Notes: generated by a model not told the origin, from the letters alone. A stretch of 64,000 bases of DNA from Minisyncoccota bacterium (GCA_018062445.1 JAGOSG010000001.1:122426-186425), one strand, 5' to 3'. Numbered from the stretch's first letter, positions 45,053-49,208 are shown. Numbers and translations are program-made.

Positions 45053-45643
45053 CTAGTCGCCTTCAAATTTTTCCGCACCAGAACACCCTGGGAAGCCAAG
45101 GTTCTTTCCAGAATAAAATTCATTCACGAAATACGGTATATTCACATCAGCAACAAGGGTGCAAACATCAGCATTAGAAATACCAAGCTTTTCTATAAGA
45201 TTCTTAGTTGCACTTCTTCGCACTTCACCTATAGGCTCTTTAAGAATCACCACAATAAAAAATGTACCTTCGGGAGAATAAAAAATTTCATAGGTGGATT
45301 CAGCGCTAGTAGTCGCGACTTCTGAATTAGGAAACCACGATAAAAAAGAACTCGGTGGTGTGGTAGAGGCAACGCCAATATCTTTCGTAAAATCTCGAAC
45401 GAATATAGACCCATCATTACTGCTCGCTATTTCAAGAGTGTTTTGAGATGGCTTCCTTGTATTCCCTACAACTGGTGTGTTGCTACCCACTTGAGAATTA
45501 GTACCAGGAAGAGTGTTGATAGGTGAAGTGCCATTTGGTCGAGGGGTCGGCACTTGTGCAAGAAAATACAAAGTTCCCGTAAACCCTATGAGAGCGAGAG
45601 TTGCTACAGCGAGAACTAAGGTGAGTATGTTTTGTCGGTTCAT
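45053..45643 (-). CDS. hypothetical secreted protein with Thr/Pro-rich linker
   Basis: N-terminal anchor MNRQNILTLVLAVATLALIGF; low-complexity linker; C-terminal globular region. Confidence 0.45.
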   Translation of the reverse strand: MNRQNILTLVLAVATLALIGFTGTLYFLAQVPTPRPNGTSPINTLPGTNSQVGSNTPVVGNTRKPSQNTLEIASSNDGSIFVRDFTKDIGVASTTPPSSFLSWFPNSEVATTSAESTYEIFYSPEGTFFIVVILKEPIGEVRRSATKNLIEKLGISNADVCTLVADVNIPYFVNEFYSGKNLGFPGCSGAEKFEGD

Positions 45644-45657
45644 GTTTTTATTAAAAA

Positions 45658-46644
45658 TTAGAATATGCAGAGATGGCCTCGGACTGCTTCTATATCCCAG
45701 TGAGGCCCACCCCCAGACACCCCTGGACGCGGTCTCTCACGGGCATACTTATTTCCACAACTATCTCTATATACTTGTGCTTCCTGCGAACCCCATCGGA
45801 CCCATTGCCCACCATAGAGAGGAGTGAAAATATTTGGATTATTACTCTGAATGCAAGCATTAAGAGTTGGGTTAAGGCGAACATCCGCTTTGAAGCCGGA
45901 ACCATGAGCACCGCCACGGTTTCCATCGCTACCAATTGCTGCAGAAGTCACAGTAAATTGAGTTCCGCACAATCTGTGAAGTTGGATCAACTGATCGACA
46001 GTTTGCATGCGTATACCTGCAAGTGAGGCACCAGATGTACAGGGGACAGCGCCTCCACATACGCCCCCCTGTTCTAATGTGCGTATCGCTGCAGCACTGG
46101 TTCGGTACACACCTCCTACTGATGCCGTTGGAGAAGGTTGTCCCGGTCCTCCTCGTGTACCACCCGTCACTCGTGGACGAGGTGCTTGTGCACCAGGTGC
46201 ATCAGGAAACGCGCCAGACACAGGAGCAGAAATACAATCAATGTGAGTCCAGATGGTAATACTTTTCCCCGTCAACACCGAAAAAGTAATATTAACCAGA
46301 AGCCATGCGGTAAGCACAATACATAAGCCGACAAACACATTAATAAACACGCCGTGCGCTTTCTTTACTTGATCTGGCTTGCTTGCTGCGGTTACATACA
46401 GAATACCTGCATAAGCAAACATGAGGGTTGCAACAATAACAGAGAAGGCAACAGCGAAGTTAATGACATTGTTTGCAAGTTCGGAAAGATCACACGCCCT
46501 ACACTCTGCTCCCTCACATTGAGGAACTAATCCCCCACCGCTCCCACTTAAGAGTGCTGAAGGGTCTTGCTGAACTGCAGCAAATGCCACGAGTGGCATG
46601 AAAAATACTATCGGAAGAAGAAGTATCAGTATCTTTCTCATCAC
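45658..46644 (-). CDS. membrane protein with VirB2/TrbC-like N-terminal topology (signal peptide plus two TM helices) fused to a Gly/Pro-rich linker and a Cys-containing C-terminal domain
   Basis: Signal peptide, then NNVINFAVAFSVIVATLMFAYAGILYV / loop / VFINVFVGLCIVLTAWLLVNITFSVL; topology resemblance only. Confidence 0.4.
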   Translation of the reverse strand: MMRKILILLLPIVFFMPLVAFAAVQQDPSALLSGSGGGLVPQCEGAECRACDLSELANNVINFAVAFSVIVATLMFAYAGILYVTAASKPDQVKKAHGVFINVFVGLCIVLTAWLLVNITFSVLTGKSITIWTHIDCISAPVSGAFPDAPGAQAPRPRVTGGTRGGPGQPSPTASVGGVYRTSAAAIRTLEQGGVCGGAVPCTSGASLAGIRMQTVDQLIQLHRLCGTQFTVTSAAIGSDGNRGGAHGSGFKADVRLNPTLNACIQSNNPNIFTPLYGGQWVRWGSQEAQVYRDSCGNKYARERPRPGVSGGGPHWDIEAVRGHLCIF

Positions 46645-46768
46645 ACAATGAGTATACCCTTGAAAAAATCTCCTCGACCTCTATATATGGTTGTGTACGA
46701 GACCTCTCCACACCTCGAAGAACCACATATTGACTTTCCTCAGAGGAAGCACATGATTCAGTGAAGTA

Positions 46769-47284
46769 GTGCATGATTATTGGTTTTCTAAAAAGAAATT
46801 GAAACATATGGATCGAGATCCAAAACCATCTTTTACAAAAAAAGCCAAGGGAGTAGGACTCGCGTTCTTAGGAGCTCTTTCGCTTGGTGGCTTTGCGGGT
46901 GATGCGGGGGCGCAGACGCAAGGGCGTCCTCTAAGCCCAGCAGAGCGATCTACACGTGAATATCAGCGCTTCAGTGCGAATAACCAAGCGGCAGCTAGAC
47001 GATCACAAGAGGCAATAAGTAGGATGGCTAGGAGACAAGCAGTTTATTGCGAGCAACTTAGACAGCAAGTAGAAAGGGATGGTTATACTGCGACCCAAAG
47101 AAGAGTAGGCGGTTCGTCATTCGCTTCGTGCAATATACGGCAATAGATCGCAAAAGAAGCAGAGAGCCCAGCAAATAGAGCATGCAGAGAAGTTGAATTT
47201 GCGAAACTAAAGAAAGAGGAGGACGAACTTTTTAGGTACTGTGAGAGCGTGAACTTCGCAGGTGAGAGATGCCGTGGTTTATAG
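46769..47284 (+). pseudogene. small secreted Cys-containing protein, paralog of 47303..47728, interrupted by an in-frame TAG at 47144..47146
   Basis: After the TAG the same frame continues IAKEAESPANRACREVEFAKLKKEEDELFRYCESVNFAGERCRGL, which aligns with the paralog C-terminus AAESPADRARRQAQDAKRQKEEDELIRYCVSVNYVGERCSGM. Confidence 0.5.
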
Positions 47285-47302
47285 AACTTACAATAAACTA
47301 AA

Positions 47303-47728
47303 ATGGGATCAAGATACGAAGGCCGGCATGATACTCAAAAGAAACCTCGGGGTGCAGCATTGCTCGCAGCTATTACCCTCGGCTTTGCAGGTGATGCGGG
47401 GGCGCAAGATGCACCACGAAGATCTTGGGAATATGGAGATATGAGTCCTACAGATGCAGCATACTGCCGAAGAGCGGCAGAAACGGAAACTAGAGTGGCA
47501 AGAGAAGGTAGGCATCCCAATATGGGTAACTTGTGTAGTTTTTATGATTTACCTGCGGATTTACGTTCAAGAGATGAGGCGTTGTATGCCAGAGAAGCTG
47601 CAGCAGAGAGCCCAGCAGATAGAGCCCGAAGACAAGCTCAAGATGCGAAAAGGCAGAAAGAAGAGGATGAACTTATTAGGTACTGCGTAAGCGTGAACTA
47701 TGTAGGCGAGAGGTGCAGTGGTATGTAA
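47303..47728 (+). CDS. small secreted Cys-containing protein (paralog family; signal ..LGFAGDAGAQ)
   Basis: Shares signal-peptide and C-terminal EDEL(I/F)RYC.SVN..GERC motifs with the upstream gene. Confidence 0.5.
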   Translation: MGSRYEGRHDTQKKPRGAALLAAITLGFAGDAGAQDAPRRSWEYGDMSPTDAAYCRRAAETETRVAREGRHPNMGNLCSFYDLPADLRSRDEALYAREAAAESPADRARRQAQDAKRQKEEDELIRYCVSVNYVGERCSGM

Positions 47729-47858: not shown

Positions 47859-49208
47859 TTATTTAAGAGGGGGTTTCGTGGCGGTCTTCCGAATTGCGTT
47901 AATCAAGCTGGCGGAGTCAAAATAGTTAGATAGCTTGTTTTCCCATCCAACTTTCGATGTATCTACATCTGGGTCAACTCCCCTACCTTCAACGGGCTGA
48001 TTATCTTCCCGAAGTGTAATAGAGTTCACGAGAAGCAATGAGTAGCTAGTAGTAGGGTCTATGACAGTCTTCAACGGATACGTATTTTCAACAGTACCCC
48101 ACCCTCGCGTTGTGCCACCCACCACATGGGCGCGGTTAAATTTCTTGAATGTTGCCGCAGTTAATTCTGCAGTGGACTGTGTCATTGCATCGGTAATAAT
48201 AGCGATTTCAGTGTAGCGTTCTACAAGTGGAAATTTTTCTTGAGTTGTTCGCTCCACCTGATAGTCTCCCTGATGAAATAAATCAAAAGTATATTGATTG
48301 GCTCCAACAAAAAGACCAAAGAAAGCAGGCAAAAAATCTAGTGACCCCCCAATATTTCCCCGTAAGTCCAAAACCATACTACTGAGACCCGGTGTTGTTG
48401 ATGCCGCATCAACCGCGAGCGCAAATTCACGAAGAGTTGTTGGGGATATTTTATTAATATGAAGGTACAGCGTAGAGCCGAGCGTATGAGGAAACACAGT
48501 AGGTTCTATACCTGCAGAGTCATACAATGCCTTTGAATTATTATTAGTGAGAACTGACTGTGCGTAGGTTGCCACTGCAAGCGCTGCCTTATCTTCCGTT
48601 GAAGTTGCATTGGCAAAAATCGCCGCCTTCTTCTTATATGCCACCGCCACCTCTTCAGAAGAAGCTCCTTTCTCCAGCCCAAGATTTTGATATAAATCTT
48701 TTGATGTATCAATGTTGCTTACATTTTCTCTAAGTGCCACCTCCTCTTTTTTTGAAAGAATCCCATCGCGACCTGAGGGAGGAAGGTTATAGAGAACAAC
48801 GGCACCGATATTCAGCGCTATTTGTCGTTTATTTTCAGTGGAAGTTGCACTTCTGAAGGCACCTTCAAGCATTTTTGCGGTGCCCACCCTATCAGGAGTA
48901 ACTAATACTGTTGTTGTGGCTGTAACTTTCTCGACGGAAAGTCGAAACAATTCTGGCAACTTTAAATCCGCAGGCTTCATCCAATAATTAGTAGTTATGG
49001 AGTCGTATACCTCCATATCAAAACGAACATACACATCTGCTTCTTCTGGTGTTTGGTACTGTATTGCTGACTCAAACGACTTCGCATGCGTCCACACATA
49101 TGCGCCACTGGAGGAAAGTGCAATAACTATTCCCACCAACATGAGAACCAACTGATGTCGGAGAATAAATAATCTCACTGTATGTAGTTCTGGAATATTA
49201 AAGCCCAT
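47859..49208 (-). CDS. S41-family peptidase (C-terminal processing protease-like), membrane anchored
   Basis: IITDAMTQSTAELTAATFKKFNRAHVVGGTTRGWG matches the S41 Ser/Lys catalytic region; N-terminal TM. Confidence 0.6.
   Translation of the reverse strand: MGFNIPELHTVRLFILRHQLVLMLVGIVIALSSSGAYVWTHAKSFESAIQYQTPEEADVYVRFDMEVYDSITTNYWMKPADLKLPELFRLSVEKVTATTTVLVTPDRVGTAKMLEGAFRSATSTENKRQIALNIGAVVLYNLPPSGRDGILSKKEEVALRENVSNIDTSKDLYQNLGLEKGASSEEVAVAYKKKAAIFANATSTEDKAALAVATYAQSVLTNNNSKALYDSAGIEPTVFPHTLGSTLYLHINKISPTTLREFALAVDAASTTPGLSSMVLDLRGNIGGSLDFLPAFFGLFVGANQYTFDLFHQGDYQVERTTQEKFPLVERYTEIAIITDAMTQSTAELTAATFKKFNRAHVVGGTTRGWGTVENTYPLKTVIDPTTSYSLLLVNSITLREDNQPVEGRGVDPDVDTSKVGWENKLSNYFDSASLINAIRKTATKPPLK

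Follow-up and report, generated by a model that had tools for sequence, protein, structure and literature searches.

Programmed stop-codon readthrough, of which the A1 coat extension of phage Q-beta is an example, is a close described parallel to the locus considered here, in which the stop of a small gene, gene A, is followed in frame by an open, homologous and coding-like extension. Pyrrolysine decoding offers a further parallel, in that here, in a single genome, an in-frame UAG sits within what looks like an unbroken ORF. Unlike in programmed readthrough, the gene A stop is mostly TAA, the extension decays in relatives and no stimulatory structure is predicted. Pyrrolysine decoding is set apart by the UAA found in six of seven orthologues, by the frequent use of UAG as a terminator and by the lack of a tRNA-Pyl within the 64,000-nucleotide stretch of DNA that was analysed (the window); nor are CPR bacteria, to which this organism belongs, known to have a Pyl system.

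The silent pilS cassettes and pilE of Neisseria exemplify the gene remnants and mosaic genes to which recombination or gene conversion among tandem paralogs gives rise. At the present locus, too, a conserved leader and a conserved 3' module bracket variable cassettes that occur in differing combinations and positions, and an untranslated homologous piece adjoins expressed genes. However, we found no evidence of a dedicated or programmed switching mechanism, identified no G4 or recombinase element and saw no large silent archive (the window holds two family copies), and the untranslated piece is the conserved part rather than a variable donor. The orphans of CdiA-CT and Rhs toxin loci consist of a variable toxic tip together with an immunity gene. 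Our case shares with them a 3' gene fragment that lacks a start, is homologous to the terminal part of the adjacent gene and was left by recombination or could serve it, but it is the conserved module that makes up the fragment here, the proteins have lengths of about 100 aa, and scans with Pfam, NCBIfam and PADLOC detected no toxin, bacteriocin or immunity domain and no defence profile. Patescibacteria are known to possess VirB2-like pilins in variable arrays (PMC12102498), on which a literature search gave general context only. These pilins belong to the same phylum-level group as our genome, they too are tandem, highly variable small Sec-dependent genes, and a PF18895 gene lies directly upstream of gene A in divergent orientation. 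In contrast to such pilins, gene A and its neighbour gene B have no PF18895/TrbC match or predicted transmembrane hairpin and encode soluble-looking helical Cys proteins.

Our analysis indicates that the TAG of gene A is likely a genuine stop that ends a short, probably secreted protein, and that the 45 codons following it are an untranslated leftover of recombination between adjacent paralogs. We take the tail for a commonplace scar of recombination, in a family of secreted proteins that evolves fast. The case carries a caution: an in-frame stop followed by a conserved, homologous domain in the same frame mimics recoding, and this locus should not be counted as a candidate for readthrough or code deviation in CPR bacteria. 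It also offers a modest but specific view of the ways in which episymbiotic CPR bacteria vary their secreted or surface proteins, here a Paceibacteria family of secreted Cys proteins that evolves by shuffling leader, body and tail modules.

The tandem genes and their modules

A reading of the sequence alone had proposed that genes A and B are paralogs with a common leader and C-terminal motif, and that the homology of gene A continues in frame past its stop; all of this was confirmed. The read-through product of gene A aligns with B by BLASTP at E = 1e-21, and computational alignment upheld the homology of the C-terminal segment, the 45-residue post-stop peptide reaching a Smith-Waterman score of 143 against mature B that was attained by 0 of 3000 shuffles (z = 25). 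The leader ending G(F)AGDAGAQ is present in both genes, and the window contains precisely two copies each of the leader-end block GGTGATGCGGGGGCGCAG and of the block GAGAGCCCAGCAGATAGAGC, where chance would give 0.01-0.03. Translating 46769-47284 in a single frame yields ...SCNIRQ*IAKEAESPANRACREVEFAKLKKEEDELFRYCESVNFAGERCRGL*, in which the TAG is followed, as had been noted, by 45 sense codons (47147-47281) and by a terminal TAG that ends at 47284. In the alignment, the stop falls opposite a Tyr codon (TAT) in B, from which a single transversion separates it. The coordinates of these and neighbouring features are collected in Table 1.

Table 1. Features of the locus, numbered from the first nucleotide of the window.
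Feature	Position	Strand	Remarks
VirB2-like T4SS_pilin domain with ~200-aa C-terminal domain	45658..46644	-	PF18895, E = 1.6e-10; divergently transcribed neighbour
Promoter-like site TTGACT-16-CATGAT	46730..46757	+	Inside conserved upstream block; putative function
Gene A	46808-47146	+	ATG 46808, TAG 47144-47146
Gene A leader (MDRDPKPSFTKKAKGVGLAFLGALSLGGFAGDAGAQ)	46808..46915	+	Putative Sec signal peptide, 'MDRDPK' type
Gene A mature body ('A cassette')	46916..47143	+	76 codons, 2 Cys
Gene A stop TAG	47144..47146	+	Stop at the same codon in 7/7 A-type loci
C-module relic travelling with the A cassette	47147..47257	+	Very likely untranslated
Relic end, terminal TAG (47282-47284) and 18-nt spacer	47258..47302	+	Candidate 3' end of the ancestral position-1 gene
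Gene B, intact full-length paralog	47303..47728	+	141 aa, MGSRY-type leader, 4 Cys
S41 peptidase gene	47859..49208	-	PF03572, E = 1.3e-19; conserved right-hand boundary of the variable locus

The ATG at 46808 is likely the start of gene A in preference to the GTG at 46769, because orthologues open with MDRDPK... at that point. With its charged n-region, hydrophobic core and AGA-Q site, the leader is a putative signal peptide; AlphaFold gives it a pLDDT below 50, and elsewhere the same MDRDPK leader is fused to bodies of C-type (P0012), D-type (P0013) and B-type (P0002). For mature A, AlphaFold predicts a confident helical fold by itself (pLDDT 77-95, from a shallow alignment). The product would be a 112-aa precursor, with translation ending at the TAG, that is processed to a helical mature protein of ~76 aa with one Cys pair. 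The body ends in ...SCNIRQ, includes the tryptic peptide EYQRFSANNQAAAR and is 95-99.6% identical in nucleotide sequence over six aligned loci (the window, L001, L004, L005, L006 and L010), with 14 of 240 columns variable; L014, which was read separately, has the same A body as the other A-type loci.

Gene B encodes a protein 100% identical to P0001, the hypothetical protein KBC74_01000 of a 'Candidatus Pacebacteria bacterium' MAG, and its AlphaFold model has a three-helix mature domain (pLDDT 84-93). The identity places the window in a CPR/Patescibacteria genome (Paceibacterota). Its translated sequence includes the C-module DEL.R[YH]C.SVN..G[ED]RC.G. with a second Cys pair, in the form ESPADRARRQAQDAKRQKEEDELIRYCVSVNYVGERCSGM. 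In gene A this module is found only beyond the stop, and we therefore group A with the module-less A/D body type. A MAFFT alignment had hinted that the C-terminal half of A might be its own diverged C-module, by placing it against that of B, but a shuffle test gave no support (z = 1.6, 216/3000) and the idea was dropped.

Upstream of gene A lies a block of ~90 nt (within window 46700-46807) that contains the promoter-like site as well as GATTATTGGTTTTCTAAAAAGAAA and is conserved at all loci. The promoter consensus has a single match there, a count not above chance. The block is duplicated before the second gene in L007 (700-797), L010 (about 830-920) and L014 (about 785-870, read on the minus strand); in loci that do not have the duplicate, the second gene follows after just an 18-nt spacer (AACTTACAATAAACTAAA).

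A stop common to all A-type loci and a decaying tail

Searches for orthologues in protein collections, for which A, B and a relative of D-type served as queries, returned a handful of proteins, and the contigs of the encoding loci were fetched (L001-L006 and L010). A scan of metagenome DNA with the pattern CGCTTCGTGCAATATACGGCAANNNATC, in which any codon is allowed at the stop site, added L014. The A-type proteins P0007-P0011 (111-115 aa) all terminate at ...SCNIRQ, and a stop occupies the site in seven of seven distinct A-type loci, namely the window and six more from other assemblies. It is TAA in six of them (L001-3, L004, L005, L006, L010 and L014) and TAG in the window only. The sense codon that a comparison of orthologues might have revealed at this site was found in none of the seven loci, in neither of two protein searches of 5.8 billion clusters and nowhere in the metagenome DNA scan. 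These seven copies are not independent: with a synonymous divergence of just 0.02-0.08, the shared stop reflects identity by descent.

Beyond the stop, the picture changes abruptly. In the six-locus alignment, the proportion of variable columns rises sevenfold, from 14/240 in the body to 55/135 in the post-stop segment (Fisher p = 1.8e-16), and bins of 30 nt hold 1-3 variable sites upstream of the stop against 13-17 downstream. L010 and the window differ at 4 of 228 sites in the body and at 12 of 62 in the relic (p = 3e-6). By codon position, the variable post-stop sites divide 14/18/23, with a modest tilt to the third position. The relic reads IAKEAESPANRACREVEF...ERCRGL and includes EVEFAK and YCESVNFAGER. 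In functional modules (~10, from B-type and C-type proteins, P0015 and P0016), the residues D-E-L, R, C, S-V-N, G, R-C and G never vary, and at such positions the relics of four of the seven loci are damaged. The segment is open with its motif intact in the window, L014 and L006. In L004 it is open with an R>T change within the invariant R-Y-C motif, and in L001-3 it is open with a 21-nt deletion that removes SVNFAGE from between the two Cys. L005 and L010 have a common second in-frame stop (KKEV[Y/D]*NFRY), to which L005 adds a Cys>Ser change. The proximal part of the relic, ANRACREVEFAKL as compared with ADRARRQAQDAKL in functional modules, has seven nucleotide changes, all of them nonsynonymous and several radical (D>N, R>C, Q>E, A>V, Q>E, D>F). 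One change adds a Cys, so that a read-through product would have five, an odd number that leaves one unpaired. An independent start for the segment was also considered and rejected, since the frame contains neither ATG nor TTG and its sole GTG comes late, as the Val codon of ESVNF. The relic probably has no function of its own.

The sequence-only reading had left three explanations for the stop: sequencing error, a fresh nonsense mutation that made a pseudogene, or programmed readthrough. That the TAG arose as a sequencing or assembly error, or as a fresh mutation specific to the strain of this MAG, draws some credit from the window being the sole copy with TAG instead of TAA. Both triplets are stops, though, and the JGI, ENA and Logan assemblies, six besides ours and from different samples, have a stop at the same codon in three positional contexts. 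Because this holds for every A-type locus, we consider error and strain-specific mutation excluded for practical purposes, with a negligible chance of being right. Readthrough would have a fraction of ribosomes decode the TAG or TAA to yield a 157-aa isoform with the Cys-pair C-module. It accords with the open frame and perfect motif in the window, L014 and L006, and the base after the stop is A, a context that is not the strongest terminator. The post-stop segments also show pN/pS values of 0.2-0.8 between loci, which, being below 1, could on their own suggest coding constraint. This is the main loose end of our account. Since the relic diverges (by up to 0.3) more than the A body does at synonymous sites, part of its variation must stem from recombination with diverged functional modules, and our tentative explanation for the values below 1 is that such exchange took place repeatedly, with modules whose divergence had been shaped by selection. 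Against readthrough, TAA is the least leaky stop, the downstream ORF is not kept open under purifying selection in orthologues, as the second stop, the motif deletion of L001 and the invariant-site change of L004 attest, and the extended product would carry its unpaired fifth Cys. Nor is there a conserved leaky stop or context, or a 3' stimulatory structure: the sequence around the stop (47120-47300) folds no better than shuffles (z = 0.29), the hyper-conserved A body has no RNA structure either (z = +1.7), and an Rfam scan of the window returned nothing besides tRNA. TAA in six of seven loci, the conservation cliff at the stop and the folding result together lead us to disfavour conserved programmed readthrough strongly, as a very improbable account.

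Decoding or reassignment of UAG fares no better, since UAG at this site is confined to the window and is far from rare as a terminator. The 62 long ORFs in the window end in TAA (37), TAG (17) and TGA (8), so that the earlier statement that the other window genes use the standard code holds and TAG is a normal terminator in this genome. The sole tRNA within the 64-kb window is tRNA-Asn.

The short A protein and the age of its cassette

A genuine stop at this position raises the question of whether the short protein works, and gene A is, in our judgement, probably functional, its truncated product being likely to act as a secreted protein. The main competing account has gene A dead throughout, as a pseudogene that once encoded a full-length protein, was inactivated by a nonsense mutation, works neither in its 112-codon part nor in its tail, and persists and spreads only by hitch-hiking with recombination at the locus. 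The stop is indeed one transversion from the Tyr codon of gene B, and the locus is prone to decay, as illustrated by a B-type gene in L013 that has been truncated by deletion. The body, moreover, has no clear synonymous excess: its 14 variable sites, read by eye from the alignment, comprise about 8 nonsynonymous and 6 synonymous changes, and with pairwise pN/pS of 0-1.5 the substitutions are too few to demonstrate purifying selection. On the other hand, the body varies seven times less than the relic adjoining it, also in the comparison of L010 with the window, and its ORF is intact in all seven loci, including L006 despite an in-frame 12-nt insertion. At the L001-3 locus the A gene is the sole family gene, and across loci the cassette stands behind two leaders and at three positions. 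Absence of the C-module is itself natural in this family, being seen in the D-type P0013, the E-type P0014, P0020 and the L012 gene, and P0017, and the Cys pair of A is conserved with the D-type. We therefore regard a dead gene as unlikely. Of the earlier suggestion of a pseudogene, what survives is that the 3' tail is dead; the 112-codon gene in front of it looks like an intact short member of the family.

The relationship of A to the D-type bears on how the stop came about. The two bodies give no alignment by BLASTP, but their Smith-Waterman score of 63 was reached by 0 of 2000 shuffles (z = 5.6), both Cys are conserved in the multiple alignment, and both proteins end one or two residues past C-N-I. 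With moderate confidence, we take the A and D bodies to be homologous. Their ancestor may have had its native end here, or a Tyr(TAT) codon may have changed to a stop, and the sequences are compatible with both.

The A body shows pS of 0.02-0.08, with pN/pS of 0-1.5 resting on too few sites to interpret, as compared with pS of 0.20-0.40 and pN/pS of about 0.2 for the B body between lineages, and pS of 0.26-0.42 and pN/pS of about 0.1 for the S41 peptidase, the gene used as our yardstick of divergence (86-92% nucleotide identity among four loci). From the low pS of the A body it follows that all A copies derive from a recent ancestor that already had the stop, and 'ancient' would be the wrong word for it. 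The cassette seems to have passed, not long ago, between lineages of species rank, with flanking genes that are about 87% identical.

Mosaic structure, family and neighbours

Between RRM or pilin genes on one side and the S41 peptidase gene on the other, the locus holds one or two family genes in varying order, and leaders and bodies occur in several combinations. A bodies stand behind MDRDPK leaders in the window, L010 and L014 and behind MGSRY leaders in L001, L004, L005 and L006; B bodies are found with MGSRY, MDRDPK and MGMFDK leaders, and C bodies with MDRDPK and MGSRY. The sequence downstream of the gene A stop is likewise a composite. Over its first 111 nt, the window relic has no differences from that of L014, and it differs from L004 at one of the first 62 nt. 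The stretch that runs from about 47258 up to gene B matches instead the intact gene at position 1 in L005, over that gene's 3' end and its spacer, except for TAG in place of TAA. Position 1 is the first place of the two-gene array in relatives, and the match takes in the spacer together with the final 27 nt of the relic. The spacer with the start of the next gene has 0/26 differences from both L005 and L004. The relics of A genes at position 2 differ from the window at 5-6 sites in the stretch beginning at 47258 and at 16/26 in the flank. We read a point near 47258 as a recombination junction; a first placement of the breakpoint, ~62 nt after the stop, was abandoned when site-by-site comparison put it at ~111 nt.

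Since the relic is identical to that of L014 for 111 nt and then matches the 3' end of the L005 position-1 gene, gene A of the window can be read as a three-part chimera, in which a promoter and leader from position 1 precede the A body, its stop and 111 nt of relic, and a 3' end from position 1 follows. In all likelihood, tandem genes of this family swap the body cassettes at their centre by homologous recombination, for which the leader and the 3' module supply the conserved sequence, and in this genome an A cassette made up of body, stop and those 111 nt took the place of the position-1 body, with its 3' crossover near 47258. The 45 post-stop codons would then be the vestige of the C-terminal module that B- and C-type paralogs carry, and the tail would have stayed in frame because crossovers inside aligned coding sequence keep the reading register. 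One may go further and suppose that the leader and 3' module, the relic included, are selected as 'handles' for exchanging body cassettes within and between Paceibacteria genomes. The sequences show the recombination and the spread; that these are selected for variation, with the relic kept to that end, is a further supposition that we think improbable. If it were true, the locus would be a cassette-variation system for small secreted proteins beside a VirB2-like pilin-fusion gene in an episymbiotic CPR lineage, and one sweep of this kind would be the recent passage of the A cassette across species.

The family itself is tiny and restricted to one lineage, a narrow group of Paceibacteria, and its members are probably secreted by the Sec pathway. 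A HMMER search of 1.84 billion cluster representatives found 11 at E < 1e-3, and among 185,579 species genomes the family was present at three loci in two MAGs. Neither A nor B has a match above threshold in Pfam, NCBIfam or PADLOC; a hit of PF00866 to B (23.1 bits against a cut-off of 27) was taken as spurious, and the B model had no match at E < 1 in the PDB by Foldseek. The bacteriocin, effector or immunity roles that the sequence-only reading had thought plausible are candidates still. In P0018 and P0019, the RYC.SVN..GERC tail is replaced by another short Cys-pair tail ([YL]CR[TL]HP[ND][EN]C), and the C-terminal disulfide module thus exists in at least two versions.

Family genes lie divergent beside a PF18895 pilin fusion in the window, L005, L011, L012 and L013, and L001-3 is without the pilin pair. 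As a conjecture, a role for the family at the cell surface or in interaction with a host is plausible. The ~200-aa C-terminal domain of the pilin fusion matches no Pfam family. A 196-aa protein (45053-45643, minus strand) adjoins the fusion, and this pair is divergent from the small secreted genes. At the other boundary of the locus, residues 171-230 of the S41 peptidase, upstream of the peptidase domain, form a DnaJ-like stretch that falls below threshold (21.6 bits against a cut-off of 27.8). A further sign of a locus prone to rearrangement comes from the Parcubacteria MAG Greene0714_7 (L013, 2971-3821), in which the deletion in the truncated B-type gene took away its final ~10 codons along with the spacer, so that it continues, out of frame, into the family gene that follows and forms an ORF of 210 aa. 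A paralogous module is found on another contig of the MAG FW305_bin.14 (L012, 1352-2945), where a 325-aa pilin fusion and a 250-aa protein accompany an E-type secreted gene.
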